Assembly: GCA_017959625.1 (NCBI GenBank) | Contig: JAGDAG010000202.1 | Coordinates: 1 to 50,539 of the forward strand | From: Abditibacteriota bacterium | Lineage (GTDB): Bacteria > Armatimonadota > UBA5829 | Direction: 5' to 3' | Length of the DNA stretch: 50,539 bases | In this document: positions 1 through 15,459 of the stretch, in pieces | Numbering within the stretch: position 1 is the first letter of the stretch | How the letters are laid out: every line of letters begins with the position of its first letter | The notes under the pieces: model-generated | Told to the model about the DNA's origin: nothing | The model's input: the letters and a program-made list of their open reading frames with translations, nothing else | The model's database searches: none | Position numbers and translations under genes: made by a program

Positions 1-753
1 CATCTCCTTCACAAACGCCCCTACGTGTTCCGGCGCGCCTTTTCCGTATTTTTTCAAAAGCTTTATGATGGCCGAGCCTACTATGGCCCCGTCGGAAACG
101 GAGGCCATCTGCCTTGCCTGGGCGGGAGTGGAGATCCCGAAGCCCACGGCGCAGGGCGCGGAAGTATTTTCGCGCACCACCTTCACTATGGAGGGGATAT
201 CGGTGGTTATCTCCGTCCGGGTGCCGGTGACCCCCAGGCTGGAGACTATATACAGAAACCCCTCGGCTTCTCTCGCTATCCCGGCGATACGCTTTTCCGA
301 GGTGGGGGCCACAAAGCTGATAAGGTCCACCCCGAATTCCCTGCACACCGGCAGAAATTCATCCTTTTCTTCAAAAGGGACGTCGGGAAGGATGACGCCG
401 TCTATGCCAGTTTCGCGGCATTTTTTCATAAAGCGCTCCGCCCCGTAAGAAAAGACCACGTTGGCGTAGGTCATAAAGACCATGGGAACGGTGACGCTGC
501 GGCGGACCTCCTCCACCAGCCCGAACACCCTGTCCGTGGTGGTGCCGCCCTGAAGCGCCCGCAGGTTCGCCTCCTGTATCACCGGGCCCTCCGCGGTAGG
601 GTCGGAGAAGGGTATCCCCAGTTCTATAAGGTCCGCGCCGGCCTCCGCGGCGGCGCGCACGCAGGCGCAGGTGGTCTCAAGGTCGGGATCGCCGCAGGTG
701 ATGAAGGGGATAAAGGCTTTTCCGTTTTCAAAGGCTTTCTTTATGTTACTCAT
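1..753 (-). CDS. trpA: tryptophan synthase alpha chain, C-terminal end runs off the window
   Basis: My translation of the minus strand from ATG 753..751 gives [61 protein letters not shown]..., a typical TrpA N-terminus. The frame is open to position 1, so it is absent from the ORF track. The ATG overlaps the trpB stop by 8 nt. Confidence 0.9.
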
Positions 754-1942
754 TTATGCTTTCTCCTCTGTAACGGGCAACGGAGGCGCAGTCCTTGTCG
801 CCCCTGCCGGAAAGAGTTATGACCACGATCCCGTCCCGGGGCATCTCCGGCGCCGCCTTCATCACCCAGGCAACGGCGTGGGCCGACTCTATGGCGGGGA
901 TGATGCCCTCGGTCTTTGCCAGATATTCAAAGGCGGACACCGCTTCTTCGTCGGTGACCGGCACGTATTCCGCCCGGCCGGTATCGTGGAGATACGCATG
1001 CTCGGGGCCGATCCCCGGATAATCGAGACCCGCCGAAATGGAATAAACCGGAGCGATCTGGCCGAACTCGTCCTGGCAGAAATAAGATTTCATGCCGTGG
1101 AATATGCCTTCTCTGCCGGTAGCGATGGTAGCGGCGGTCTCAAAGGAATCCACTCCTCTCCCCGCCGCCTCGCAGCCCACCAGGCGCACGCTTTTATCGC
1201 CGAGAAAATGATAAAACGAGCCTATGGCGTTGGAGCCGCCGCCCACGCAGGCGGCCACCACGTCCGGCAGCCTGCCTTCCTTTTCCTGCATCTGCTCTTT
1301 GATCTCGGCGGATATCACCGCCTGAAAATCCCTGACTATGGTGGGGAAGGGATGGGGCCCCATGACGGAACCCAGACAGTAATGGGTGTCCGATATGCGG
1401 TTGGTCCATTCCCGGAAGGCCTCCGATACCGCGTCCTTGAGGGTGGCTGTGCCGGTCTTTACCGGCACCACCTCCGCTCCCAGGAGCCGCATGCGGTAAA
1501 CGTTCAGCGCCTGTCTTCTGGTATCTTCCTCCCCCATGAACACCACGCACTCCATGCCGAAGAGGGCCGCGGCGGTGGCTGTTGCGACTCCGTGCTGCCC
1601 CGCTCCCGTTTCCGCTATCAGCCTGGTCTTGCCCATTTTCTTTGCCAGCAGGGCCTGCCCCAGCACGTTGTTTATCTTGTGGGCGCCGGTATGGTTCAGG
1701 TCCTCCCGCTTGAGGTATATCTTCGCCCCTCCGAGATCCTCCGTCATCTTCCGGGCGAAATACAGCCGCGAGGGCCTGCCCGCATATTCGTTGAACAAAA
1801 GCGAAAGCTCACGCCGGAAATCCGGGTCGTCTTTATAGCGGCAATAGGCCTCGTCAAGCTCCGTGACGGCGTTCATAAGGGTCTCGGGTATATACTGCCC
1901 CCCGTGGATCCCGAATCGTCCCTTTTTCATAGTGTCCTCCAT
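746..1942 (-). CDS. trpB: tryptophan synthase beta chain
   Basis: 398 aa. Contains [27 protein letters not shown] (PLP lysine region) and GGGSNAIG. Confidence 0.95.
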
Positions 1943-1945
1943 ATT

Positions 1946-2974
1946 TTACAGCATGTCAGCCATTCTGTATATCATCTCCTCGGTCTCCTTCCAGCCCAGG
2001 CAGGGGTCGGTGATGGACTGCCCGTAGCAGCCGCCGCCCACAGGCTGGGAGCCCGATTCTATGTAGCTTTCCACCATAAAGCCCTTTATCAGCTTTTCTA
2101 TCCGAGTATTGAAGCGGCGGTTCTGCAGCACCTCTCTTATGATGAGAGGCTGCCGGAAGGGATCCTTGCCGGAATTGGAATGGTTGGTGTCCACCAGCGC
2201 CGCGGGGTTGGGGAGCTCATACCTGTCGAAAAAGTCGCACAAAAGCTCCAGATCCTCGTAATGGTAGTTGGGATGGTGCTGCCTGTGCTTGTCGGTATAG
2301 CCCCGGAGTATAGCGTGGGCGTAGGGGTTCCCGAAGGAATGGGTCTCCCAGCCTCTGTAGATAAAGGTATGCTGATGATGGGCGGCGGTTATGGCGTTCA
2401 TCATCACCGAAAAATCGCCGCCGGTAGGGTTTTTCATACCCACGGGCACCTCTATGCCGGAAGCGGTGAGCCGGTGCTCCTGGTTCTCCACGGAGCGGGC
2501 CCCCACGGCAACGTAGACCAGGATGTCGTCAAGGTATTTATGGTTGTCGGGGTAAAGCATCTCGTCGGCGCAGCCGAAGCCGGTCTCCGCCACCACCCGC
2601 ATATGGAGCTCCCTCACCGCTATGAGCCCCTTGAAAAGATCCGGCTTATCCGTGGGGTCGGGCTGGTGCAGCAGCCCCTTGTAGCCCTCTCCCGTGGTGC
2701 GGGGCTTGTTGGTGTATATGCGGGGCACTATCATTATTTTGTCCTTCACCTTTTCCTGCACGGGGACCAGCCTGGAGATATAGTCCAGCACGCTGTCCTC
2801 GCAGTCCGCGGAGCAGGGGCCTATGATGAGCAGCAGGCGGCTGCTTCTGCCGTCAAGTATCTGCTTTATCTCCAGCACCTTTTTTTCCATGGTCTCGCTG
2901 ACCAGGCGGGTGATGGGAAACATCTCCTTCACCTCTACCGGTATGGCCAGCTTTCTGTAAAAATCCATATTCAT
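1946..2974 (-). CDS. aroG: 3-deoxy-7-phosphoheptulonate (DAHP) synthase, class I alpha (AroF/G/H type)
   Basis: 342 aa. Contains IIGPCS, NKPRTT, GARSVENQEHRLTASG, VGMKNPTGG, HSNSGK and ITDPCLGW. Lies 3 nt upstream of trpB. Confidence 0.88.
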   Translation of the reverse strand: MNMDFYRKLAIPVEVKEMFPITRLVSETMEKKVLEIKQILDGRSSRLLLIIGPCSADCEDSVLDYISRLVPVQEKVKDKIMIVPRIYTNKPRTTGEGYKGLLHQPDPTDKPDLFKGLIAVRELHMRVVAETGFGCADEMLYPDNHKYLDDILVYVAVGARSVENQEHRLTASGIEVPVGMKNPTGGDFSVMMNAITAAHHQHTFIYRGWETHSFGNPYAHAILRGYTDKHRQHHPNYHYEDLELLCDFFDRYELPNPAALVDTNHSNSGKDPFRQPLIIREVLQNRRFNTRIEKLIKGFMVESYIESGSQPVGGGCYGQSITDPCLGWKETEEMIYRMADML

Positions 2975-2996
2975 TTTGCAAAACGCCTCACAAGCC

Positions 2997-3851
2997 TTAT
3001 TTGTCGAACCACGCCCTTCTCTCGGTGGAAAGGCGCATCTTTTCCTTCATCTTTTCGCTGTCTTCCGCTTCGAGGGCGTCCCGGAACTCCCGGAATTCCC
3101 CAAGGAACCTGTCCATCTTGTCAAGAAGCGGTTTTTTGTTCATAATAAAAAGCTCGCTCCACATATCCTCGTTTATACGGGCTATCCTGGTGAGGTCCCG
3201 GAAGGAATTGCCGGTATAGTCTGCCAGGTGCCTGTTTTCGCTGGCCGTCATAAGGGAAACGGCTATACAGTGGGTGAGCTGGGAAACGAAGGCTATCATT
3301 TCGTCATGCTCCTCCGGGGAAAGCACCGATATCTTCCGGCAGCCCAGGATACGACCCAGATCCTTGCACCACTCCACGGCCTTCCGGGTATTGGCCTTTG
3401 TGGGGGTCACTATATAGTTTGCGTTGCGGAAAATGCCGTCGTCGCTGTTTTCAACGCCGCTGACTTCCTTTCCGGCCATAGGATGGGCGGCAATGAATTC
3501 CACGTCCTTCCGCAGACACGCCTGCGCTTCGTAAACCACGCTGCTTTTTATACCGGTGACGTCGGTTATCATGGCGCCGGGCCGGAAAAGATGCTGCCAG
3601 CGTTTTATCCATTCGGGCAGAGTCCGGGGATACAGGCCGAAGATCACCGTGTCCGCAGAAGAGACCAGAGCCGGCTCCACTTCGGTGCTGCCTTCCTTTA
3701 TGATGCCCTTTTCCAAAGCGAAATCTATGGCCTCCCTGCGGGTATCGATGGCCGCCACGTGGCAGCCCAGACGGGAAAGAGCCATGGCGTAGCTGCCGCC
3801 CATGAGCCCGAGCCCGGTTATAAGTATGTTGCCTTTATTGATCCACTGCAT
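2997..3851 (-). CDS. tyrA: prephenate dehydrogenase
   Basis: 284 aa. Has an N-terminal Rossmann motif ILITGLGLMGGS and FIAAHPMAG. Its start overlaps the end of aroA by 17 nt. Confidence 0.85.
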   Translation of the reverse strand: MQWINKGNILITGLGLMGGSYAMALSRLGCHVAAIDTRREAIDFALEKGIIKEGSTEVEPALVSSADTVIFGLYPRTLPEWIKRWQHLFRPGAMITDVTGIKSSVVYEAQACLRKDVEFIAAHPMAGKEVSGVENSDDGIFRNANYIVTPTKANTRKAVEWCKDLGRILGCRKISVLSPEEHDEMIAFVSQLTHCIAVSLMTASENRHLADYTGNSFRDLTRIARINEDMWSELFIMNKKPLLDKMDRFLGEFREFRDALEAEDSEKMKEKMRLSTERRAWFDK

Positions 3852-5016
3852 ATATCTCCGCCTTTATCCCAAGTTTTTTCAGTGTGTCAAAATATTCCGG
3901 AAAGCTTTTGTCCGCCGCCTCCGCCCCCAGCAGCTCTCCCCCCGTCACGGTAAGAAGAGTGCAGAGAGCCATCACTATACGGTGGTCGTTGTGCCCCGAA
4001 AGAGGGGCCTCCGGCTTTTTCGGTACGCCGGGAAAAACGGTAAAGCTGTTTTCGCCGTTCCTGCAGCGGATGCCGAATTTCAAAAGCTCCTTTTCCATGG
4101 CGGCGGCCCTGTCGGATTCCTTCAGCCTGAGCCTTGCGGTACCGGTGAACCTTCCTCCGGAAAGCCCCGCCGCAACGGCAAAGAGCACGGGCCCCAGGTC
4201 GGGACAATCCGAGATATCCAGCTCCGCAAAGCCCCGGGCCAGCCGGGCGAAATATTCGCCGTATATCCTGTCTCCCTGGACCGAATCCGGAAGGAGCCCT
4301 TCCACCTCCACCTCGCCTCCGAAAAGGGAAAGGGCCGAAAGAAAGGCAGCGTTGCTGTAATCGCCTTCCACGGAGGCCCGGCAGGGGACGTACCGCTGCT
4401 TTCCGGGGATCTCTATGACGTTGTCCCGCCTTACGGCCTTTACGCCGAAAAGGGAAAGGGCCTTTAAAGTCATCTCTATATACGGCAGGCTCTCCACGGG
4501 AGGTTCAAGCATTATCTTGCTTCCGCCCTCCAAAAGAGGCAGGGCGAACAGGAGCCCCGAAACGAACTGGCTGGATATATTGCCCGGACATTTATACGTA
4601 TCCGGCGCCAGGTCCCCCCGTACCGTAAGGGAAGCCTTCTCTTTTTCAAACAGAAAGCCTTTTTGGCGGCATATATCCTCATATACCGAAAGAGGGCGCT
4701 CGAAAAGCCTCTCCGCCCCGGTAAAAGTCACCCTTTCCGAAAGGGTCAGGGCGTAGGGCAAAAGGAAACGCAGGGTGGAACCCGACTCGCCGGCGGGCAG
4801 CCGCAGGCTGTCCGGCGCCGCCTCTCCCCTGCGGAAACGCTCCAGCTCCTCCAGGCATCTTCTTGTGGCCAGGGTGTCCATGGAATCCGACTCCGGAAGG
4901 ATGAGGTCCCCTTCTGCAAGAAAAGAGCAGATCATCAGCCGGTGGGCCATGCTTTTGCTGGGGGGCGCCTTCACGCGGCCCCGGGCTTTTCCCGGAAATA
5001 TCACCGCCTTTTTCAT
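3835..5016 (-). CDS. aroA: 3-phosphoshikimate 1-carboxyvinyltransferase (EPSP synthase)
   Basis: This is the C-terminal 393 aa of track ORF 3835..5703, starting at the internal MKKAVIFPGKARGRVKAPPSKSMAHRLMI. ATG 5016 overlaps the aroQ stop (ATGA). The upstream 229 aa of the ORF are Arg/Gly/Pro-rich and overlap aroQ and aroE/K, so they are not coding. Confidence 0.88.
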   Translation of the reverse strand: MKKAVIFPGKARGRVKAPPSKSMAHRLMICSFLAEGDLILPESDSMDTLATRRCLEELERFRRGEAAPDSLRLPAGESGSTLRFLLPYALTLSERVTFTGAERLFERPLSVYEDICRQKGFLFEKEKASLTVRGDLAPDTYKCPGNISSQFVSGLLFALPLLEGGSKIMLEPPVESLPYIEMTLKALSLFGVKAVRRDNVIEIPGKQRYVPCRASVEGDYSNAAFLSALSLFGGEVEVEGLLPDSVQGDRIYGEYFARLARGFAELDISDCPDLGPVLFAVAAGLSGGRFTGTARLRLKESDRAAAMEKELLKFGIRCRNGENSFTVFPGVPKKPEAPLSGHNDHRIVMALCTLLTVTGGELLGAEAADKSFPEYFDTLKKLGIKAEIYAVDQ

Positions 5017-5456
5017 TTGCTTTTCTCTCCGAAGTTTTCCGCAAGAAAGGTCATGGCTTCCGTATAGCCTTCGATGCCCCGGCCGGTTCTGGTCTTCACG
5101 CAGGCTTCCCGGATATAGGATATATGCCGGAAGGCTTCTCTTTCCTCCACCTTTGATATATGCACCTCCACGGCGGGGATGCCCACAGCCTTCAGGGCGT
5201 CCAGAAGCGCGATGCTGGTGTGGGTGTAGGCGCCGGGGTTGATCACGATACCGTCGGTATTCCCCAGGGCCTGCTGGATGACGTCCACCAAAGCCCCCTC
5301 GTGATTGGACTGGAAAACCGTCACCTCCGCCCCCAGGGCGTCGGCATGCTCCCGTATCCGGCGGCAACGCGCCCCGTAGTTTTCCTTTCCGTAAATGCCC
5401 GGCTCTCTGATGCCCAGCATATTGATGTTCGGACCGTTTATAACAAGGATCTTCAT
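5013..5456 (-). CDS. aroQ: type II 3-dehydroquinate dehydratase
   Basis: 147 aa. Contains ILVINGPNINMLGIREPGIYG, FQSNHEG and INPGAYTHTSIAL. Confidence 0.93.
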   Translation of the reverse strand: MKILVINGPNINMLGIREPGIYGKENYGARCRRIREHADALGAEVTVFQSNHEGALVDVIQQALGNTDGIVINPGAYTHTSIALLDALKAVGIPAVEVHISKVEEREAFRHISYIREACVKTRTGRGIEGYTEAMTFLAENFGEKSK

Positions 5457-5465
5457 ATCTTTTTC

Positions 5466-6707
5466 CTATTCCGAAAAACGTTTTTTCAGTATTTCCATAG
5501 CGGTGGCGTCGGGATTCTCTGCCACCTGCACCGTCATATCCGCCGCCGCCCTGTATACGGGGCGCCGCCGGGCGTAAAGGGCCCTTATCTTGTCTTCCGA
5601 ATCGGCCAGGGGCCTGGCAGGATCCGGCGTAATCTCCCCGAGGTCCCGCTCCAGCAGCACTATCCTGCCGTTTTTCTTCAGGGCCCGCAGGTTTTCCCTG
5701 CACAGGGGGGCGCCGCCGCCGGTGGCGATCACCATGCCGTTTCGGCCGGCAAGCTCTTCTATGGCCTCGCTTTCCAGGCGCCGGAAATGCTCTTCGCCGT
5801 ATTTGCGGAAGATGTCCTTTATCTTCATGCCTGCCTTTTGCTCTATCATGGCGTCCGTATCCGCCGCGGGGCGTTCGGTGATGCGTTTAAGGGCTTTCGC
5901 GGCGGAGCTTTTGCCGGCGCCGGACATGCCTATGAGCACTATGTTTTCCTTGTCGGCCCGCACCTTCTTGTATATGCTGCCCACCAGGGTCTCCGGGTAT
6001 TTCTTGTCCAGGAACCGCTCCGCGGCGAAAACAGCCTGGGCAGCCAGCATGTAGAGGCCCCCCTCCGCCTTCACGCCCCTCTCCAGGGCGTCCAGCACAA
6101 GCTCGGTGCGCAGAGGGTTGTATATGGCGTCTATGACCCCCTCCAGAGCCGTAAAGGGCTCCAGGCTAAGAGGCTTTTCCCGGTGGCGGGGGAACATGCC
6201 GCAGGGGGTGGTATTGATTATTATCTCCGCGTCCCCGTGGAGCCCCCTTGCCTCCTCATAGGAGACGGCTCCCCTGTTTTTGGTCCGGCTCACCCGGAGG
6301 ACCTCCCGGGCTCCCCGGGCTTTGGCCAGAGCCAGGGCCGTGCGGGAGGTGCCTCCCGTGCCCAGTATCAGGACCTTCCTGCCTTCAAGGCTCAGCCCCG
6401 CCTTCCCGACCAGGGCGTCCATGCCCGAAAAATCGGTATTGTATCCGAAGAGCCTGCCGCCCCTGTTTACTATGGTGTTCACCGCCCCTATGGCGGCGGC
6501 GTTTGGGGAGATCTCCGCCAGATAGGGTATCACCGCTTCCTTGTAGGGAATTGTGACGTTCACGGCCCTGAAATCCGCCTTTTTCATAAAGCCGTCCAGT
6601 TCTTCGGGCTCCAGCTCCAGGAGCTCGTAGCGGTAGTTTTCTATAAGGGCGTGTATCTCCCTGCTGAAGCTGTGGGGCAGTTTTCTGCCTATACATCCGT
6701 ATTCCAT
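5466..6707 (-). CDS. aroE/aroK: bifunctional shikimate dehydrogenase (N-terminal) / shikimate kinase (C-terminal) fusion
   Basis: 413 aa. The N-terminal ~245 aa match AroE (GRKLPHSFSREIH, NVTIPYK, GAVNT, NTDFSG, LGTGGTSR). The C-terminal ~165 aa match AroK (Walker A GMSGAGKS, DTD, ATGGG). One uninterrupted frame. Confidence 0.88.
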   Translation of the reverse strand: MEYGCIGRKLPHSFSREIHALIENYRYELLELEPEELDGFMKKADFRAVNVTIPYKEAVIPYLAEISPNAAAIGAVNTIVNRGGRLFGYNTDFSGMDALVGKAGLSLEGRKVLILGTGGTSRTALALAKARGAREVLRVSRTKNRGAVSYEEARGLHGDAEIIINTTPCGMFPRHREKPLSLEPFTALEGVIDAIYNPLRTELVLDALERGVKAEGGLYMLAAQAVFAAERFLDKKYPETLVGSIYKKVRADKENIVLIGMSGAGKSSAAKALKRITERPAADTDAMIEQKAGMKIKDIFRKYGEEHFRRLESEAIEELAGRNGMVIATGGGAPLCRENLRALKKNGRIVLLERDLGEITPDPARPLADSEDKIRALYARRRPVYRAAADMTVQVAENPDATAMEILKKRFSE

Positions 6708-6708
6708 A

Positions 6709-7824
6709 TCATTCCCCCAGATAGTCAGTGCCGAAACGCAGGGCCAGAAGATCCGCCGCCACCAGCGCCGCCGCGCTGTCCACCACCGCGGGCGCCCTGT
6801 GGATAATGGCTGGGTCGTGGCGTCCCGAAAGGGAAAGAGCAGTGTTTTTCATTTCCTTCGTGTCCACGGTCTCCTGGGTCTTGAAAACAGAAGGCGTGGG
6901 CTTTATCTGGGTGCGGAACAGGATGGGCATCCCGTTGGCGATGCCGCCGTTTACGCCCCCGTTATGGTTGGTTTTCGTGCGTATCCTTCCGTCGTCGGCC
7001 ATATAAAAGGCGTCGTTATAGCCGCTTCCCCTCAGCCCTATAAGGGAAAAGGCTTCGCCGAACTCCACTCCCTTTACTGCGGGAACGGAAAAAAGGATAT
7101 GGGCCAGCAGGCCTTCCAGGGTATCGAACCAGGGCTCCCCCGTCCCGGCGGGGATCCCCGTGATACAGGTCTCCAGTATGCCTCCCACGCTGTCGCCGTC
7201 CTGTTTGGCCTCCAGGATGCGCCCGGTCATAGCCTTTTCCGCATCGGGGGAAAGGGTGGGGAACCCGGGGCCCTCAAGGCTCCGCAGAGCCTCTTCGAGC
7301 CTGCCGGGCTCTTCGGGAAAAGCGCTGTCGCAAATGCTGCTGCCGCCCCCCAGGACGCTAATGTGGGTGCCTATAAGGATCCCCTTTTTCCGCAGCGCGG
7401 GCAGCAGTATGCCTCCCGCGGCGGCAAGGGCGGCCGTGAGCCTGCCGCTGAAATGGCCCCCTCCCCGATAGTCCTGAAAGCCCCTGTATTTATATTCCGC
7501 CGTGAGGTCGGCATGCCCCGGCCTGGGAGTATGGCGGAGGGCTTCATAGGCGTCGCTTTTCGTATCGCTGTTGGGGATGATTATGGCGAGGGGCGTGCCC
7601 GTGGTCTTTCCCCTGAAAACGCCGCTCAGTATGCGGAAATCGTCCCGCTCCCTGCGGGAGGTGGATATCGCCCCCGCGGGCCGTCTTTTTTCAAGCATGG
7701 CCGCCACGGCCTCCTCCGAGACCTCTATCCCCGGCGCCAGGCCGTCCAGCACGGCGCCGATCCCGGGGCCGTGGCTTTCTCCCAGCAGGGTAAGGGTCAC
7801 CGAGTTTCCGAACGTGTTTTTCAT
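6709..7824 (-). CDS. aroC: chorismate synthase
   Basis: 371 aa. Contains TLLGESHGPGIG, RPGHADL and GRHDP. Confidence 0.93.
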   Translation of the reverse strand: MKNTFGNSVTLTLLGESHGPGIGAVLDGLAPGIEVSEEAVAAMLEKRRPAGAISTSRRERDDFRILSGVFRGKTTGTPLAIIIPNSDTKSDAYEALRHTPRPGHADLTAEYKYRGFQDYRGGGHFSGRLTAALAAAGGILLPALRKKGILIGTHISVLGGGSSICDSAFPEEPGRLEEALRSLEGPGFPTLSPDAEKAMTGRILEAKQDGDSVGGILETCITGIPAGTGEPWFDTLEGLLAHILFSVPAVKGVEFGEAFSLIGLRGSGYNDAFYMADDGRIRTKTNHNGGVNGGIANGMPILFRTQIKPTPSVFKTQETVDTKEMKNTALSLSGRHDPAIIHRAPAVVDSAAALVAADLLALRFGTDYLGE

Positions 7825-8840
7825 ATTTGATCCTCCGTACGTATGAGCTCCATCCGCTCCGCCAGCTCCCCGGGGGTGAATCTGCGGAATTCAAAACGGC
7901 CCGCCTCCTGCAGCACTACGCAGGCGATGCCCCCCTCCAGGGCTTTTTTGTCGTGGAGCATGGCGAAGAGGGCCTCCTCCCGGCTGAAAGCGGCCCGGGC
8001 GGGAAGCTCCAGCCTGCCCAGGGCGGCGGCCAGCCGCGGCCGAAACCCTTCTTCGCACATAGGGAGCATCCCCAGCGCCACGCATTCTCCGTGAAGCAGA
8101 TCGTTGGTTTTCCGGCTTTCAATGCCGTGGCCTATGGTATGGCCGAAATTCAGCGCCTTTCTGAGGCCCTTTTCCTTTTCGTCCTGTTCCACCACGTATT
8201 TCTTTATGGCCAGCGAGCGTTCTATGATCTCCGTCAGCCTGCCGTAGGGGTCGTCCTTCCCGAATATCTCAAAGAGCTCCGGGTCGAAACAGGCGGCCAT
8301 TTTCAGGGCCTCCGCAAGCCCCGCGGCCTTCTGGCGGCGGCACAGGGTGCCGGTAAGAGACGGATCCACCAGCACCTTTTTCGGCTGGTAAAAAGCCCCC
8401 ACCGTGTTTTTCACGCCCCCGAAGTTCACGGCAGTCTTGCCTCCTATGGAGGAATCCACCTGGGAAAGCACCGTGGTGGGCACGTTGTAAAACGCTATGC
8501 CGCGCATATAGCACGCCGCGGCAAAGCCGGTGAGGTCTCCCGCCACGCCTCCGCCCACGGCAACGGCGCAGTCGCCCCGTTTGAAACCGTTTTCCAGCAT
8601 GGTCTGCAAAAGCAGGCCCCACGTCTCTATGCTTTTGGACCCCTCGCCTTGGGGAACGGTCAGCGCCACCGGCTCTTTGCAGAAGGAGGCCAGGGTCTCC
8701 GCATATTCCCGGGGGACGCCGTCGTCGGTGACTATCAGCGCCTTTCTGTCAAGGTCCAGATACCGGCCGGCCTTCTTCAGGCACCCGTTTTCAATGATTA
8801 TATCGTAGCTGTTTTCGCCCAGCTCCATACTTAGTTTCAT
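7821..8840 (-). CDS. aroB: 3-dehydroquinate synthase
   Basis: 339 aa. Contains GGGVAGDLTGFAAA, PTTVLSQVDSSIGGKTAVN and GHTIGHGIE. 4-nt overlap with aroC. The start could instead be Met5 (8828). Confidence 0.9.
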   Translation of the reverse strand: MKLSMELGENSYDIIIENGCLKKAGRYLDLDRKALIVTDDGVPREYAETLASFCKEPVALTVPQGEGSKSIETWGLLLQTMLENGFKRGDCAVAVGGGVAGDLTGFAAACYMRGIAFYNVPTTVLSQVDSSIGGKTAVNFGGVKNTVGAFYQPKKVLVDPSLTGTLCRRQKAAGLAEALKMAACFDPELFEIFGKDDPYGRLTEIIERSLAIKKYVVEQDEKEKGLRKALNFGHTIGHGIESRKTNDLLHGECVALGMLPMCEEGFRPRLAAALGRLELPARAAFSREEALFAMLHDKKALEGGIACVVLQEAGRFEFRRFTPGELAERMELIRTEDQI

Positions 8841-8849
8841 TTTATCCTC

Positions 8850-9941
8850 TCATATCTCTTCGGGCTCGGAAAAGCTGCCGGCGATCTTCAGGATCCCGCA
8901 GTTCTTGGCCAGAGCATTCATCATTTCCCTTCCTTCGGCAGAAAAGATCTCGCCTTCTGCTTCCATACAGAAATAATACTGCCAGGGTGAGCTGCCCAGA
9001 GGGCGCGAACGAAGGGAGCACATATTGAAGCCGTATCTCCCTATAACGCTTATTGCCTCTGCCAGGGAGCCGGCTTCGTTCCGGACCGTGAACATCAGCA
9101 TAAAGCGGCATGTCTTTTTGTCATTCAAGGTATTCTGTACCCTGGAAAACACGGCGAAGCGCGTTTCGTTGCTGAAGCTTGTCTGTATGTCGTGATCCAG
9201 TACCGAAAGCCCGTAAAGCTCCGCCGTTTCCATGCTCGCAATTGCTGCAGTATGTATATCGCCTTCTCTTGCCACCGATTCGGCAGCCATAGCGGTATTT
9301 ATCGCTTCTTCTTCTCTGAAACCATGGATTTTTATATATTCCCGGCACTGACTGAGAGCCTGGGGATGGCTGCGGACAGTTCTGATATCCGATATACGGG
9401 AGCCCTTGGGAGCAAGAAGGTTCTGTCTGATGCGAAGCTTATAGACTGCGTTTATAAACAACGAACCGTGAAACATCAGATCCGCAACCTGCCCTACTTC
9501 GCCGGCGTAGCTGTTTTCTACAGGCAGCACTGCCTGTTCGCAGTCGCCTTCCGCCACGGCTTTCCAGGCTTCCGCAAACCCCGGAAAATTAACAGTCAGC
9601 GCGTCGGGAAAAATACGTTCCGCCGCTATAGCGGCAAATGATCCGGCGATCCCGCTGTAAGCTATACGGCTTCCCGATATAAGTTCTCTCTGATAGCTTC
9701 GGAAGACGCTTATTGCGTTATGCAGAAATTTAATATAATGAGCCCGCAGCACAGGGTCGGAGATCAGGGCCGAATTGTTTTCGATAAAGGTTTTTTCTGT
9801 TTCTGCCGAATCAACGGAAAGCCCTCTTTTCTTTTTGTGAATGGCGATCCTGCCCGCTGCCTTCATCCGCTTTTCAAAAAGAAGAGCCATTTCCTTGTCT
9901 GTCCGGGCTATCTCCCGCCGTATTTCTTCCTGTTCGTTCAT
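8850..9941 (-). CDS. pheA: bifunctional chorismate mutase / prephenate dehydratase (P-protein) with C-terminal ACT-like domain
   Basis: 363 aa. The N-terminal ~85 aa form a helical AroQ-type chorismate mutase segment. This is followed by a prephenate dehydratase core (GIAGSFAAIAA, VLPVENSYAGEV, NETRF) and an ACT-like tail (GSLAEAISVIGRYGFNM). Confidence 0.85.
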   Translation of the reverse strand: MNEQEEIRREIARTDKEMALLFEKRMKAAGRIAIHKKKRGLSVDSAETEKTFIENNSALISDPVLRAHYIKFLHNAISVFRSYQRELISGSRIAYSGIAGSFAAIAAERIFPDALTVNFPGFAEAWKAVAEGDCEQAVLPVENSYAGEVGQVADLMFHGSLFINAVYKLRIRQNLLAPKGSRISDIRTVRSHPQALSQCREYIKIHGFREEEAINTAMAAESVAREGDIHTAAIASMETAELYGLSVLDHDIQTSFSNETRFAVFSRVQNTLNDKKTCRFMLMFTVRNEAGSLAEAISVIGRYGFNMCSLRSRPLGSSPWQYYFCMEAEGEIFSAEGREMMNALAKNCGILKIAGSFSEPEEI

Positions 9942-9950
9942 ATTTTTTCC

Positions 9951-10553
9951 TTACACTCCTCCGTGAGCAGCCAGCACTGCCCGGCGGATCTTGTCGGCAT
10001 CCTTTACTCCGTTTGTTTCAACCCCGGAGGAAATATCCACCGCCGCCAGATACGGCAGCCCGGCGGCTTCGGGGATGCTTTCCGGCGTAAGCCCCCCCGC
10101 AAGTATAAAGGGCCTCCCGGCGTTTCGGGCAAGCTCTCTGTCAAAGGGCCTGCCTTCCCCCATCCCTCCGTCCAGAAGGATGAGGTCGGCGGCGCTTCGC
10201 CGCGCCCTTTCAAAGTCTTGCGCGCTCCCGAAGCTGAAGGCCTTCCATACGTGGAGGCCGGCGGCGCGCCGGAGAGCCGTGATATAACCGTCGTCCTCGC
10301 CGCCGTGAAGCTGGACCGCGTCCGCCCCTATAAAGCGGGCGGCGCCGGCGGCGGCCTGCAGGGGCAGGTCCACAAATACCGCCACGGCCTTTATCTCCGG
10401 GCGCAAAAGCCTTCTCAGCTCTGCCGCTTTTTCCGCAGATACGTTTCTGTGGCTTTTGGGATACCCGATTATAAAGCCGATATAGTCGGGGCAGGCTTCG
10501 TTCACAGCCTCCGCGTCTTCTCTGCGGAAGAGGCCGCATATCTTTATCTGCAC
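9951..10553 (-). CDS. trpF: N-(5'-phosphoribosyl)anthranilate isomerase
   Basis: This is the C-terminal 200 aa of track ORF 9951..11057: VQIKICGLFRREDAEAV...GADAVQLHG...ILAGGLTPE. GTG at 10553 is preceded by GGAGG and overlaps the trpC end by 10 nt. The upstream part of the ORF overlaps trpC and is junk-like. Confidence 0.82.
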   Translation of the reverse strand: MQIKICGLFRREDAEAVNEACPDYIGFIIGYPKSHRNVSAEKAAELRRLLRPEIKAVAVFVDLPLQAAAGAARFIGADAVQLHGGEDDGYITALRRAAGLHVWKAFSFGSAQDFERARRSAADLILLDGGMGEGRPFDRELARNAGRPFILAGGLTPESIPEAAGLPYLAAVDISSGVETNGVKDADKIRRAVLAAHGGV

Positions 10554-11338
10554 GGCTCCGCCTCCCGCCTCAGGCCTGCCAGAAAGGCGCCCTTGTCCGG
10601 GGATCTCATAAAGGCTTCGCCCACCAGCGCCGCGTCGGCTCCCGTATCCTTCAGGGCCCGTATGTCTTCGGGGCCCCTTACCCCGCTTTCGGAGACGTAG
10701 AGGCAGCCCTCCGGAACGAGGCTCCTCAGGCGCGCCGCATTGGACAGGTCCACCGAGAAATCCTTCAGGTTGCGGTTGTTGACCCCTATCATGCGGGCCC
10801 CGGCGTCCGCCGCCGCCTTTATCTCGTCGGCGTCGTGGGCTTCCACCAGGGCCGCCAGGGACAGGGACCTGCACAGCTCCGTCAGGCGGCAGAGCTCCCG
10901 GGGGGACAGCAGGGCGCAGATGAGCAGGGCGCAGTCCGCCCCCAGGGCCTTGGCCTGGTATATCTGGTATTCGTCCACTACGAAATCCTTCCGCAGCATA
11001 GGGACCCCGGTCAGGGCCCGCACCTCCCGGAATACGCCGTCGGACCCCAGGAACCATTTGGGCTCCGTCAGGCAGGAGATGCAGTCGGCCCCCGCCTCCG
11101 AATATTCCCGGGCTATGGAGCGGTAGTCAAAAACCGGGTCTATGACCCCCTTGGAGGGGGACGCCTTTTTGATCTCGCATATAAAGGAGAGGCCCTCCCG
11201 GGCCACGGCGCCGTAAAACCTCTCTCCCCCGCCGGCAAGAGCCTCGGCCCGTTCCCTCAGGGCGGCGGGGCTTTCCCGCTTTTTGTCCCGTTCCACCCGC
11301 AGCCGGGCGTAGGCCGCTATCTCGTCCAGGATGGTCAT
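10544..11338 (-). CDS. trpC: indole-3-glycerol phosphate synthase
   Basis: 264 aa. Contains ICEIKKASPSKG, CLTEPKWFLGS, PMLRKDF and GVNNRNL. Confidence 0.93.
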   Translation of the reverse strand: MTILDEIAAYARLRVERDKKRESPAALRERAEALAGGGERFYGAVAREGLSFICEIKKASPSKGVIDPVFDYRSIAREYSEAGADCISCLTEPKWFLGSDGVFREVRALTGVPMLRKDFVVDEYQIYQAKALGADCALLICALLSPRELCRLTELCRSLSLAALVEAHDADEIKAAADAGARMIGVNNRNLKDFSVDLSNAARLRSLVPEGCLYVSESGVRGPEDIRALKDTGADAALVGEAFMRSPDKGAFLAGLRREAEPCR

Positions 11339-12364
11339 TTATTCCTCCGGGCGGTTGCTGACCTCTATAAGCTTTTCCAGGACCCCCAGAGCCTTCCCGG
11401 AGTCCAGCAGCTCCGCCGCAAGCGCTGCGCCTTCCCCTATGCCGGAAGCCTTGCCGCAGATATACAGCGAGGCTCCCGCGTTCAGAAGGACGGCGTTCCG
11501 CTTGTGCCCTTTCTGCCCGTTGAGTATATCCAGGGCTATACGGGCGTTCTCCTCCGGGGTGCCTCCCCGCAGGTCCTCCTTCCGGCAGGGCTCCAGGCCG
11601 AAGTCCTGAGGCTGCACTACGTAAGACTTGAACCAGCCGTCCCTTATCTCGCATATCCTGGTGGGAGCGGAAAGGGATATCTCGTCCAGCTTGTCCCTGC
11701 CGTAAACCGCCATGCCCCGCGTGACTCCCATATTGGCCAGGACCTGGGCCAGGGGCTCCGTCAGATATTCGTCATAGACTCCCAGCAGCTGCATTTTGGG
11801 GCGGCCCGGGTTGGTAAGGGGCCCCAGGATGTTGAACACGGTGCGGAAGCCCAGCTCCTTGCGGATGGCCCCCACGTATTTCATGGAAGCGTGGTATTTC
11901 TGGGCGAAAAAGAAGCACATTCCCGCTTCCTTCAGCAGCTCCACGCAGCGCTTGGGGCTCTGGCTGATATTGACCCCGAGGGCCTCCAGGCAGTCGGCGG
12001 TGCCGCACAGGGACGAGGCGGCCCTGTTGCCGTGCTTTGCCACCTTGCAGCCGCCGGCAGCCGCCACCAGGGCGGACACTGTGGAGATGTTGAAGCTCCC
12101 CGCGTTGTCGCCCCCGGTGCCCACTATCTCAAAAATGTCCATGCCTGTTTCCACCTTCAGAGAGTGGTCTCTCATGGCGGCGGCGCAGCCGGTTATCTCG
12201 TCGGTGGTCTCGCTGCCGGCGCTTTTTGTGGAAAGAGCCGCCAGAAAGGCCGCGTTCTGGGTGGGGGTAGTCTCGCCGCTCATGATCTCGTTCATGACGT
12301 CATAGGCTTCTTTGTAGGAAAGATCTTCCTTGTTAACTATTTTTACAATGGCTTCCTTTATCAT
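11339..12364 (-). CDS. trpD: anthranilate phosphoribosyltransferase
   Basis: 341 aa. Contains [23 protein letters not shown] and NILGPLTNP. Confidence 0.93.
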
Positions 12365-12936
12365 TTTTTGACCTCCCTGATAAAATTATAAAGCATGGTC
12401 CTCCCCTGGGGAGTCATAACGGATTCCGGATGGAACTGAAGGCCGAAAACCGGGTATTTTCTGTGCTCCACGGCCATCACCTCGCCGTCCTCCGTTTCGG
12501 CCCGTATCACAAGCTCCTCCGGCAGAGTGTCTTTTTCTGCCGCCAGGGAATGGTAGCGGGCCACGTAGGCTGTTTCGGGACAGCGGGCAAAAAGCGGACA
12601 GCGCTTGTCCAGGGCCACCTTCGACTGTTTTCCGTGCATAAGGGCCTTTGCGTAGGTGATGCGGCCCCCGAAGGCGGCGCATATGGCCTGGTGCCCCAGG
12701 CATACACCCAGAATGGGCACCTCTCCCGCCAGCTCTCTCACCGCCTCCACTATGATACCGGCGTTCTCGGGCCTGCCGGGGCCGGGGGACAGTATGAGCC
12801 TGTCCGGCGCCAGCCGTCTTACGTCTTCCACGGTGACCTCATCGTTGCGGACCACCTTTATATCCGGTTCTATCTCTCCCGTAAGCTGATACAGATTATA
12901 GGAGAAGCTGTCGTAGTTGTCTATAAGAAGGATCAT
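12361..12936 (-). CDS. trpG: anthranilate synthase component II (glutamine amidotransferase)
   Basis: Starts at the internal [17 protein letters not shown] of track ORF 12361..12996. ATG 12936 overlaps the trpE stop (ATGA). Has the catalytic GVCLGHQ and FHPES. Confidence 0.92.
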
Positions 12937-14411
12937 AATTCCTCCTCCCCGGCCAGGGAAAGGGCCGAAAGAGAGGCCTTTGCCTTGTTGAGGCATTCCT
13001 CATATTCCTTTTCGGGGTCCGAATCCGCCACTATGCCGGCGCCGCTGCGCACGAACACCCTGCCGTTCTTTTTGTAAGCGATGCGTATGGCTATGCAGGT
13101 GTCCATGTTCCCCGAGAGATCTATATATCCTATAGCCCCTCCGTAGATCCCCCGCTTGTTGTCCTCCAGCATATCTATAAGCTGGCAGGCGCGGATCTTC
13201 GGCGCGCCGGAAAGAGTGCCGGCGGGCAGCACCGCCTCTATGGCGTCCAGGGCGTCTTTGCCTTCCCTTATCTCGCCCCGCACCGTGGAGCCTATGTGCA
13301 TAACGTGGGAAAACCGTTCCACGCTGCGCAAAGTCTCCACCTTCACGGTGCCGAACCTGCTTATCTTTCCCAGGTCGTTGCGGCCCAGGTCCACCAGCAT
13401 ATTATGCTCCGCCAGTTCCTTTTCGTCCGCCAAAAGCTCCGCTTCCAGGGCCGCATCTTCTCTTTTGGTCTTTCCCCGGGGCCTGGTGCCCGCAAGGGGG
13501 AAGGTATGCAGCACGCCTTCCTGCAGCTTTACCAGGGTCTCCGGAGAGGCTCCCGCCACCTCTACATCGGTGCCGGAAAAGTAGAACATATACGGCGAAG
13601 GGTTCAGGGTGCGCAAAACCCGGTAAGCGTCCAGCAGGCTGCCCTCGAAACCGGCGGAAAGCCTGTTGGAAAGCACTATCTGAAAAATGTCGCCCTCGCG
13701 GATATATCCCTTTGCCCGCTCTATCATGCGGCAGAACTCTTCCCTGCCGAAAAGGGGCGCAACTTCGCTTGTCAGCCGGCCCCGGGGCTCGGCTTTCTTT
13801 TTGCCGGTCTTCAGCAAGAGAGCCATCTGCTTAATCTCGGAGACAGCCTTTTCGCAGCCCTTTGCGGCGTCCTTTGCTGGGACGTTCACTATAAGAACTA
13901 TCTTCTGCCTGATGTTGTCGAAGGCGATCACCTTGTCAAAAAGCATCAGATCGACGTCTCTGAAGTTTTCGGTGTCCTTTGCCTTTATCTCCAGCCCGGG
14001 CTCGGCGTATGCGATATAGTCGTAGGCGAAATAGCCCACCAGCCCTCCCGCAAAGGGAGGCATCCCTTCAAGCCGCGGGCTCCTGTGCCGGGCCAGCAGC
14101 TCCCGCAGCTCCCGGGTGGGATCTCCCTGCCGCTCCGTTCTTTTTCCCCCGGGCTCCTCCACGGTGATTTTTCCCCCGGCGCAGTAAAACAGCAGCTTGG
14201 GGTCGTAGCCCAGAAAGGTGTAGCGCCCCCAGGTCTCGTCGGTGCGGGCCGATTCCAGCATAAAGGTGTGGTCGGACACGTTTTTCAATATCCTTTCGGC
14301 TTCTATGGGGGTGATGAAATCCGAAAGGATCTCGCCGGCAACGGGGATCACGTCGTAACGCCCCTCCGCTGCGAGCCTTTGCACTTCTTCCGGTTCCGGA
14401 AAGATCTTCAT
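12933..14411 (-). CDS. trpE: anthranilate synthase component I
   Basis: Contains LESA, chorismate-binding motifs (GAGIVADSDPEKEYEE, RGIYGGAIGY) and more. I prefer MKIFPEP at 14411 because AGGAGG lies 6 nt upstream. The track ORF begins 27 nt further up, at 14438. Confidence 0.92.
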   Translation of the reverse strand: MKIFPEPEEVQRLAAEGRYDVIPVAGEILSDFITPIEAERILKNVSDHTFMLESARTDETWGRYTFLGYDPKLLFYCAGGKITVEEPGGKRTERQGDPTRELRELLARHRSPRLEGMPPFAGGLVGYFAYDYIAYAEPGLEIKAKDTENFRDVDLMLFDKVIAFDNIRQKIVLIVNVPAKDAAKGCEKAVSEIKQMALLLKTGKKKAEPRGRLTSEVAPLFGREEFCRMIERAKGYIREGDIFQIVLSNRLSAGFEGSLLDAYRVLRTLNPSPYMFYFSGTDVEVAGASPETLVKLQEGVLHTFPLAGTRPRGKTKREDAALEAELLADEKELAEHNMLVDLGRNDLGKISRFGTVKVETLRSVERFSHVMHIGSTVRGEIREGKDALDAIEAVLPAGTLSGAPKIRACQLIDMLEDNKRGIYGGAIGYIDLSGNMDTCIAIRIAYKKNGRVFVRSGAGIVADSDPEKEYEECLNKAKASLSALSLAGEEEL

Positions 14412-14437: not shown

Positions 14438-14477
14438 TAATAAAACGTCCCTGACAGAAAGTATTCTGTCAGGGACG
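14438..14477 (-). terminator. T-box leader intrinsic terminator (attenuator) in front of trpE
   Basis: Minus-strand RNA CGUCCCUGACAGAA-UACU-UUCUGUCAGGGACG forms a perfect 14-bp stem (14446..14477). It is followed by UUUUAUUAU. Its 5' arm (CCCUGA) can alternatively pair with UCAGGG of the T-box motif to form the antiterminator. Confidence 0.88.
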
Positions 14478-14730
14478 AATAGAATACCACTATCCGCGGT
14501 GCCACCCTGAATTCACGGCTTCTGCCGCGCCCTTAGCGGGGTACCAACATACCCCCGGCAACTCACGTATGCCCTCACGTTGCAGGATACTCTGCGGGAG
14601 CCCCGCATTTCACTGCACCCTCGGCGGCCCATTTGACAATTTGTTTCTCACCTGATTCTCAGCATCGCAGGCTCTCTGTAGAGGCATGGGTGTCTTTATC
14701 CCCGCGTCATCGGTTTAAAAAAGGATTCAC
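14438..14730 (-). promoter_or_regulatory. T-box riboswitch leader, probable tRNA-Trp specific
   Basis: The minus strand contains the canonical T-box sequence AAUUCAGGGUGGCACCGCGG (14513..14494). It also has AGAGAG (14677..14672), GCUGAGA (14663..14657), an AUGA...GA K-turn-like base, and the terminator/antiterminator alternative. Candidate specifier is AAA-UGG-G (UGG = 14631..14629), just 5' of a CCGC helix that pairs with GCGG (14705..14702). The acceptor-pairing bulge reads UGGC. Confidence 0.85.
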
Positions 14731-14736
14731 AGTTTT

Positions 14737-14765
14737 ATTATAACACCTTCTTTTACGTGTGTCAA
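14737..14765 (-). promoter_or_regulatory. sigma-70 type promoter of the aromatic super-operon
   Basis: The minus strand reads TTGACA (14765..14760), a 17-nt spacer, then TATAAT (14742..14737). Both hexamers are perfect consensus. Confidence 0.75.
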
Positions 14766-14787
14766 TACCCTGCCCCGGACGAAATCA

Positions 14788-15459
14788 TCATTTTTCATAC
14801 AGGGAAAGAGAGCCGGGAAGAGCGTTGTCCGCATCCTCCGCTCTTTCTCCGGCAAGGCCCTCCAGATGGGCGGTGTCGTTGATACGGCGCGCCCGCACCC
14901 TTTCTCCCAGTTCGAATACGGATATGGAGGTATTGCCGAAATCGAAGGTCCTCCAGTATTCCGGCGGGAGATCCAGAAGATACAGGATCATGCCCCTCAG
15001 GGTGCCTCCGTGGGCCACGGCCATTATTACGTCGTCTTCAGAATGGCGTTTTTTTATCTCCTCCGCAAAGCGCCGGCCCCGCTCCGCCACGTCCATAAGG
15101 CTTTCTCCCCCGGGAGGCGCCGCGCTGTAGGCCTGCCGCCAGGGGCAGTCTTTCACCGGGAACACCCGCTCTATCTCTTCCCGGGTCTTTCCTTCCAGGA
15201 CGCCGAAGCTCCTTTCGGAAAGCAGGGGCTCCGGCACGGGCCGAAGGCCCATGGGCCGGCAGATGATCTCCGCCGTTTCCGCCGCCCTTTCAAGGGGCGA
15301 GGTATAGGCGTGGGTGATGCCGCAGTTTTTCAGCCTGCAGGCGGCGAGAGCGGCCTGCTTCCTGCCGGCTTCGTTGAGCCGGGAGGGCACGCTCTGCCCC
15401 TGGATGATCTTTTTCAGGTTGCAGTCGGTTTCTCCGTGACGGACGAGATAAAGTATCAT
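14788..15459 (-). CDS. histidine phosphatase family protein (phosphoglycerate mutase-like / GpmB-CobC type)
   Basis: 223 aa. Has the N-terminal catalytic LVRHGETDCN motif and the downstream AHGG histidine motif. Confidence 0.85.
   Translation of the reverse strand: MILYLVRHGETDCNLKKIIQGQSVPSRLNEAGRKQAALAACRLKNCGITHAYTSPLERAAETAEIICRPMGLRPVPEPLLSERSFGVLEGKTREEIERVFPVKDCPWRQAYSAAPPGGESLMDVAERGRRFAEEIKKRHSEDDVIMAVAHGGTLRGMILYLLDLPPEYWRTFDFGNTSISVFELGERVRARRINDTAHLEGLAGERAEDADNALPGSLSLYEK

Follow-up and report, generated by a model that had tools for sequence, protein, structure and literature searches.

Some T-box-controlled trp operons of Clostridia and Peptococcaceae include an aroF-type gene for DAHP synthase (DAHPS), DAHP being the 7-phosphate of 3-deoxy-D-arabino-heptulosonate. 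The Clostridial T-box trpEGDCFBA operons, exemplified by the one with the trpE leader of Clostridium phytofermentans (PMC5171806; PMC2494555), resemble the locus described here, which lies in a stretch of 50,539 nucleotides (the window) that is one whole contig (C183; GenBank JAGDAG010000202.1) from an uncultured gut bacterium assigned to the Abditibacteriota. Both have a transcriptional T-box, a UGG specifier codon and the gene order E-G-D-C-F...B-A, but in the window eight non-trp genes (9.0 kb) separate trpF from trpB, and the host bears lpxC and kdsA. We consider it likely that the trp genes and the enclosed block form one T-box-gated unit of about 14.8 kb, which contains the sole aro, phe and tyr copies found and was formed by insertion within the genus of this bacterium.

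The supraoperon of Bacillus subtilis, aroFBH-trpEDCFBA-hisC-tyrA-aroE (Xie et al. 2003, summarised in Song et al. 2005, PMC1173090), likewise fuses Trp-branch, common-pathway and Tyr genes by insertion of one operon into another, but which operon encloses which is the other way round, with trp inside aro in Bacillus and an aro block within a trp operon here. The Bacillus cluster is regulated by TRAP acting on the trp segment and by additional promoters, and is without DAHPS and most shikimate genes, whereas in the window the whole pathway and pheA stand behind a tRNA-Trp T-box, and the leader is a T-box instead of a run of (G/U)AG repeats. In Simkania negevensis, the operon trpR-trpE/G/D/C/F/B/A-DAHPS (Bonner, Byrne and Jensen 2014, PMC3937554) also makes DAHPS co-operonic with trp, so that Trp status controls entry into the common pathway. 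That DAHPS, proposed to be a Trp-dedicated isoenzyme (PMC3937554), is one of three paralogues and is under the TrpR repressor, whereas the DAHPS of the window is the only one found, is behind a T-box sensor, and is accompanied by the genes of six more common-pathway steps and of the Phe and Tyr branches alike. A redundant trp/aro supraoperon in Nostoc and Anabaena and aro genes that adjoin the trp operon of Desulfovibrio vulgaris have also been described (PMC1173090), as have T-box control of a tyrosine biosynthesis operon in the B. cereus group and a Trp T-box on chorismate mutase in S. thermophilus (PMC2494555). The exact arrangement of the window was not found in the literature searched, although it should be noted that key reviews were outside that search. 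A first-pass annotation of this DNA had called its regulatory logic unusual compared with the Bacillus supraoperon; the logic is less unprecedented than that implied, given the DAHPS gene of the Simkania trp operon (PMC3937554) and the reverse nesting in Bacillus (PMC1173090).

All fifteen genes of the operon are on the minus strand, in the order trpE-G-D-C-F, pheA, aroB, aroC, aroE::aroK, aroQ, aroA, tyrA, DAHP synthase, trpB, trpA, and each is named by a curated NCBIfam or Pfam model (Table 1). The seven trp genes are all in this one unit (NCBIfam anthranilate-synthase, TrpD, TrpC, TrpF, TrpB and TrpA models, with the curated cut-off exceeded for trpD, trpC, trpB and trpA) and are not contiguous, the inserted block occupying positions 1946-9941. 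The junctions, computed with corrected trpG and trpF starts, range from -17 to +22 nt and are, from 5' to 3', -4, -4, 0, -10, +9, +9, -4, +1, +9, -4, -17, +22, +3, and -8 nt; the gap between the DAHPS gene and trpB becomes +15 nt if trpB starts at 1930. The order, the tight packing, the split of the trp genes into a leading trpEGDCF and a terminal trpBA with the common-pathway genes between them, and the lack of an aromatic aminotransferase gene in the unit are all as the first-pass annotation had described them; it was silent on the origin of the arrangement, the insertion of a Clostridia-type eight-gene operon between trpF and trpB.

The leader upstream of trpE is preceded by a promoter that matches the sigma-70 consensus in all 12 hexamer positions, and an equivalent 12/12 promoter is present upstream of the T-box in G022, an independent genome from the same genus. 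The leader matches the Rfam T-box model RF00230 over its full length (positions 1-219; 70.1 bits, E 4e-15). In an alignment of seven leaders, from the window, G022, a sister genus (G020) and four Clostridial trpE loci, 18 predicted pairs show compensatory changes, and the UGG specifier is invariant in 7/7. The specifier is followed by a purine at 14628 and then by the closing helix CCGC at 14624-14627, giving the context AAA-UGG-G/A-CCGC. The UGGC bulge of the T-box sequence (14501-14504) is complementary to the 3' end of tRNA-Trp, GCCA, and the tRNA-Trp(CCA) of the same genome has a discriminator G73 followed by CCA, the complement of UGGC. The terminator has a folding energy of -26.2 kcal/mol (z-score -9.5), its 5' arm GUCCCUG doubles as the 3' strand of the antiterminator, and an AAGGAGG ribosome-binding site is located between it and trpE. 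The minimum-free-energy fold of stem I alone is uninformative (z-score +1.2), which is no surprise in a helix with many non-canonical motifs, and stem I was assessed by covariance-model alignment and covariation rather than by fold energy. The first-pass annotation had proposed control by Trp for the case of a UGG specifier, and the single T-box, the only one detected in the genome at E <= 0.01, has UGG at the codon position of the model; the leader is thus predicted to be a transcriptional, Trp-specific T-box. The end of a gene of the histidine phosphatase family (14788-15459) is separated from the -35 box by 23 nt that hold no terminator (14766-14790). Transcription of the four-gene cassette upstream could thus run on into the T-box leader, but would there still face the T-box terminator.

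Table 1. Features of the trp/aro operon and its leader, in window coordinates and in the order of transcription
Feature	Position	Strand	Basis or remark
Sigma-70 promoter, TTGACA-17-TATAAT with extended TG	14737-14765	-	12/12 consensus matches
Predicted T-box leader RNA (stem I, stems II/III, T-box sequence)	14468-14719	-	Rfam RF00230
Predicted specifier codon UGG (Trp)	14629-14631	-	codon position in covariance-model alignment
T-box sequence AGGGUGGCACCGCG	14495-14508	-	covariance-model alignment
Predicted intrinsic terminator: 14-bp stem, 4-nt loop, then UUUUAUUAU	14446-14477	-	folding
trpE, anthranilate synthase component I	12933-14411	-	start picked behind AAGGAGG ribosome-binding site
trpG, glutamine amidotransferase component II	12361-12936	-	ATGA overlap with trpE
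Promoter-like site TAGACA-17-TATAAT	12895-12923	-	11/12 matches; 13 nt into trpG
trpD, anthranilate phosphoribosyltransferase	11339-12364	-	NCBIfam/Pfam models
trpC, indole-3-glycerol-phosphate synthase	10544-11338	-	NCBIfam/Pfam models
trpF, phosphoribosylanthranilate isomerase	9951-10553	-	GTG start; 10-nt overlap with trpC
pheA, bifunctional chorismate mutase (CM_2, residues 7-84) and prephenate dehydratase	8850-9941	-	domain models
aroB, 3-dehydroquinate synthase	7821-8840	-	NCBIfam/Pfam models
aroC, chorismate synthase	6709-7824	-	NCBIfam/Pfam models
aroE::aroK fusion, shikimate dehydrogenase and shikimate kinase, 413 aa	5466-6707	-	NCBIfam/Pfam models
aroQ, type II 3-dehydroquinate dehydratase	5013-5456	-	NCBIfam/Pfam models
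aroA, EPSP synthase	3835-5016	-	NCBIfam/Pfam models
tyrA, prephenate dehydrogenase	2997-3851	-	NCBIfam/Pfam models
DAHP synthase, type I-alpha (AroFGH family)	1946-2974	-	last gene of inserted block; models
trpB, tryptophan synthase beta	746-1942	-	likelier start 1930, behind GGAGGA
trpA, tryptophan synthase alpha	1-753	-	last 7 codons cut off by contig end

The assembly breaks within 132 nt around the trpA terminator (window position 1 and C190:18029-18054), and the end of the operon is seen in a metagenome contig, JAEEGL013034064.1 (L136), that is 99.27% identical to window positions 1-3414 and, because it has 25 mismatches in this overlap, represents a different strain or assembly. L136 runs on into C190, another contig of the same genome, and thereby bridges C183 and C190. 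In L136, trpA encodes 258 amino acids and is followed, about 25 nt past the stop codon, by a hairpin, GCCGCAGGCA-TTCT-TGCCTGCGGC, with a T-rich tail, beyond which there is a convergent gene for a transporter of the major facilitator superfamily; a convergent gene is also found 3' of trpA in G022. Since the operon ends at this point in both L136 and G022, the unit, measured from its predicted start site as far as the terminator, spans about 14.8 kb and fifteen genes.

Comparison with relatives, which the first-pass annotation had called for, recovers the same gene order in G022, where a 121-kb contig carries the identical fifteen genes with all gaps of about 35 nt or less, the same promoter and the same T-box, the encoded proteins being 62% to 92% identical to those of the window. 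With gene order, leader and close packing all found again in an independent genome, the arrangement can hardly be put down to chance. The trpEGDCFBA operon of G020, from the sister genus, stands behind a T-box with a UGG specifier and has no insertion; its TrpB and TrpE are 86% and 73% identical to those of the window, and trpEGDCFBA is contiguous in G020 and in 24 other genomes of the host family, which comprises 28 species. A further genome of the same genus as the window, G021, is without trpE, prephenate dehydratase and type I-alpha DAHPS and has a lone trpB (60% identical; C74:5703-6848); this organism is probably auxotrophic for aromatic amino acids, with salvage of indole as a possibility.

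The eight genes between trpF and trpB are themselves a known unit. Among 80 genome loci around relatives of AroC, labelled Oscillospiraceae, Acutalibacteraceae, Lachnospiraceae and, in two cases, Treponema, the exact block pheA-aroB-aroC-aroEK-aroQ-aroA-tyrA-DAHPS is present in 35, most of the others have a shortened or slightly reshuffled version, and no trp gene is found near the block in any of the 80. The stand-alone Clostridial operons with the same eight-gene order have their own promoter, a leader open reading frame (ORF) rich in Phe and Tyr codons and a terminator within 150-400 nt upstream of pheA, whereas the window has no such leader. The two closest, L009 (DAHPS 84% and TyrA 75% identical) and L056, have divergent or convergent neighbours, a TTGACT-17-TATAGT promoter, and leader ORFs (L009:2446-2523 and L056:7461-7541) encoding MNQVLKDSFYYYFEARYYAGFIGLK and MNQMLKDSFYFSFAARYYYAGFFGLE, each followed, in the leaders as read, by a terminator hairpin. 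Phe/Tyr-rich leader ORFs are located 140-400 nt upstream of pheA in 36 of the 59 loci that have pheA, the carriers being gut or rumen Clostridia and two Treponema metagenome-assembled genomes (MAGs), with MNQVLKDSFYYYFEARYYAGFIGLK and MKHFAYSFYFYFYFSSVQ as examples. When the region upstream of pheA was searched for a strict T-box motif in these 59 relatives, none was found, and an Rfam search of the one leader so examined, that of L009, returned nothing relevant. From their sequences, the ORFs look like ribosome-mediated Phe/Tyr attenuators.

In the window, pheA, the first gene of the block, begins 9 nt past the trpF stop codon and has no promoter, Phe/Tyr-rich leader ORF or terminator of its own; as there is only this 9-nt gap, the control region of the block is gone. 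The parsimonious interpretation of the gene orders is that the block was inserted between trpF and trpB in an ancestor of the genus and in doing so would have lost its Phe/Tyr leader-peptide attenuator. It may be added that pheA is compositionally odd (GC content 0.506 and GC at third codon positions 0.555, against 0.68-0.83 at third positions in the other 14 genes) and that pheA and aroA are the least conserved genes of the block between the window species and G022 (66%). The trpF-trpB junction has been reused in a metagenome relative (L143:1526-8547; TrpB 85% identical) with a different inserted gene and DAHPS appended after trpA, the order there being trpD-C-F, a YhfC-like membrane protein gene, trpB-A, DAHPS, nadB, nadC.

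Both parts of the operon find their nearest counterparts in Clostridia. The Clostridial family to which L009 belongs has TrpE 70-73% and TrpB up to 87% identical to those of the window, its trpE genes are preceded by T-boxes, and about 80% of the window leader can be aligned with its trpE leaders. In the 30 closest Clostridial TrpB loci, trpF adjoins trpB in 27 and a DAHPS gene is present at that position in none. In a tree of DAHPS sequences, the window, L136 and G022 are sister to the Lachnospiraceae-labelled L009 (Shimodaira-Hasegawa-like approximate likelihood ratio test support 100) within a Clostridial clade, and the DAHPS of G020 is placed elsewhere. Other genera of the host family have a plain trpEGDCFBA operon with TrpE only 40-43% and TrpB 60-64% identical to those of the window, and in the three loci tested no T-box was detected upstream of trpE at E < 1e-3. 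Several of these genera have a W-x-W leader peptide upstream of trpE (e.g. ...GGEYTWGWRHFN...); short ORFs of this kind are present 250-370 nt upstream of trpE in L116, L119, L121, L125, L114, and L115 (e.g. MNTASYLIIHGGEYTWGWRHFNMSGAAASARIK) and are candidate Trp leader-peptide attenuators, so that the host family appears to use two different trp controls. T-boxes are sparse in the family, with one per genome where any was detected and with targets that differ between genera. Single T-boxes in two other genera (G004:C3:306613-306941 and G013:C1:2626915-2627162) are located upstream of ilvD-ilvB and near valS.

The host itself has the marks of a diderm. The lpxC gene is present in the genome of the window organism, in G022 and in G013, and not in the genomes of L009 and L056; G022 also encodes 3-deoxy-D-manno-octulosonate 8-phosphate (KDO-8-P) synthase (KdsA). 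An S-layer homology (SLH)-domain porin typical of a diderm host is encoded within the 50-kb window, where an NCBIfam scan of ten proteins named only this porin and a rhamnosidase. The lpxC match in the window organism (C65:3156-3935) contains one in-frame TAG codon, which may be due to an error in sequencing, to decay into a pseudogene or to variation between strains; the gene is intact in G022 and G013. Taken with the DAHPS tree, the protein identities and the gene neighbourhoods, this makes both modules, T-box trp and aro, look Clostridial in origin, with the fusion made in the recipient. Although its parts are well known, the arrangement is an unusual joining, of recent date, of two apparently imported operons.

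In the mechanism that we propose, the consensus promoter would drive a transcriptional T-box riboswitch in which the UGG specifier pairs with the anticodon of tRNA-Trp and the UGGC bulge with its uncharged 3' end, GCCA. Uncharged tRNA-Trp would stabilise the antiterminator, whereas charged tRNA-Trp would let the 14-bp terminator form ahead of trpE. Read-through, together with tight translational coupling, would then express the seven trp genes and, nested among them, the shikimate pathway, chorismate mutase/prephenate dehydratase and prephenate dehydrogenase, all fifteen genes being, we infer, cotranscribed. This state would have arisen when the Clostridia-type eight-gene operon entered a Clostridia-type T-box trpEGDCFBA operon and lost its Phe/Tyr leader-peptide attenuator. 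A gate that responds to Trp alone on the sole route to Phe and Tyr implies some basal read-through and feedback at the level of the enzymes, and the supply of Phe and Tyr would accordingly be balanced only by such read-through and by allostery in enzymes like DAHPS and PheA.

Several observations weigh against so complete a dependence on one Trp-specific switch. The score of the leader, 70.1 bits, is below the curated RF00230 gathering cut-off of 93, and at the gathering threshold Rfam reports no T-box in the window, the match having emerged with E-value thresholds only; it should be noted that two of the six homologous trpE leaders, which align with it column for column, reach the gathering score (98.6 and 93.0 bits). 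The genome of the window organism is only 85% complete. The trpG gene contains an 11/12 promoter-like site (12923-12895 on the minus strand), and in G022 the corresponding codons hold a partly conserved version with 10/12 matches. Finally, a sole Phe/Tyr route that is shut off when Trp is plentiful looks risky, which argues for undetected Trp-independent expression.

The last two observations are those expected if the T-box gated only part of the unit and promoters inside coding sequence gave constitutive, Trp-independent transcription of the genes downstream, including aro, pheA and tyrA, since the only Phe/Tyr route should not then hinge wholly on Trp starvation; the short U-tract of the terminator (UUUUA) would allow leakage as an additional route. 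The trp operon of Escherichia coli, the model for this alternative, has an internal promoter. The Bacillus supraoperon has internal promoters as well (PMC1173090). The trpG site, however, falls on a universally conserved TrpG peptide and uses the commonest Ile codon (58%), and G020 encodes the same peptide without promoter hexamers (ATCGAT...TACAAC), so that the site is probably a by-product of the coding sequence. Moreover, no promoter-like site with 9/12 or more matches is present in trpF or at the trpF-pheA junction of the window or G022, the number of promoter-like sites is within about 2 standard deviations of that in shuffled sequence, and in both species the junctions are too short to accommodate a promoter or terminator between genes. 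Partial gating through internal promoters therefore seems to us rather unlikely, though it deserves to be taken seriously. With regard to internal terminators, of which the first-pass annotation had seen none, terminator-like matches on the operon strand are weak and their positions are not conserved in G022; the best of them, in pheA (9638-9619), is also not conserved in position and was attributed to chance.

The preferred interpretation, a single unit holding the only copies of the common, Phe and Tyr genes, also depends on there being no second set elsewhere in the genome. The MAG that contains the window has 2.14 Mb in 322 contigs, and a second, separately regulated DAHPS, pheA or tyrA might be located in its unassembled part, the operon copies then being Trp-dedicated isoenzymes as proposed for Simkania, where one of three DAHPS paralogues is in the trp operon (PMC3937554). 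The search for such copies, which had been suggested with the first annotation, identified one DAHPS, one prephenate dehydratase and one prephenate dehydrogenase in each of the two genomes, and no second DAHPS, pheA or tyrA in that of the window organism (85% complete) or in G022 (96% complete), which has the same operon; no type II DAHPS was found. A second PF00793 protein in G022 was considered as a second DAHPS and rejected, since it scores 402.8 bits as KDO-8-P synthase, where the cut-off is 242, and a second PF00793 gene is present also in G020 and G021. An isoenzyme set dedicated to Trp would, in addition, not need full Phe and Tyr branches, and we regard this explanation as improbable. 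A second, divergent chorismate-synthase-like gene outside the operon, at C248:13161-14144 of the window organism, is 32% identical to AroC.

That the locus is an assembly or binning chimera of trp and aro operons from different organisms might be suggested by the fragmentation of the MAG, its estimated contamination of 4%, and the Clostridial appearance of both modules in a genome with lpxC, but is very improbable indeed, since the two junctions, of 9 nt and 3-15 nt, show no seam and have ribosome-binding sites, the same fifteen-gene order is present on the 121-kb contig of G022, the separately assembled L136, with its 25 mismatches, spans tyrA-DAHPS-trpB-trpA and links to C190, and the window also holds the diderm-type SLH porin.

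What is new in this locus, in comparison with the systems discussed above, is that the complete common pathway with the Phe and Tyr branches, in the sole copies found, is inside a trp operon behind one Trp T-box, that relatives preserve evidence of the Phe/Tyr attenuator lost by the inserted block, and that the host is a non-Clostridial bacterium bearing lipopolysaccharide. We put forward more tentatively, and with somewhat less than even confidence, the view that in this genus transcription for the synthesis of all three aromatic amino acids responds to no input other than the charging of tRNA-Trp. The Clostridial T-box trp operon would have been imported by a lipopolysaccharide-bearing, non-Clostridial gut bacterium, and an imported aro-phe-tyr operon inserted into it with its Phe/Tyr attenuator dropped, so that two ribosome-sensing controls gave way to one tRNA-sensing switch; the rarest amino acid would then serve as a proxy for the pathway, with the balance of Phe and Tyr left to feedback on the enzymes.

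In this locus, the rewiring of regulation through the fusion of operons can be seen in a natural case that is both clean and datable, in which the states before the fusion, a T-box trp operon alone and an aro-phe-tyr operon behind a Phe/Tyr leader peptide, persist in relatives, and the state after it is fixed in at least two species. It is also a case of a T-box-controlled biosynthetic operon in a bacterium outside the groups rich in T-boxes. For pathway engineering, it represents a compact, translationally coupled cassette of 14.8 kb for the route that takes phosphoenolpyruvate plus erythrose 4-phosphate to Trp and, on the Phe and Tyr side, to the keto-acid precursors; the closing step, by an aminotransferase, is not encoded in it. 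For the biology of the organism, the arrangement poses the question of whether a three-branch pathway can be run on a sensor for one branch only, and it suggests that in peptide-rich gut habitats the charging of tRNA-Trp may be a sufficient proxy for the supply of aromatic amino acids.

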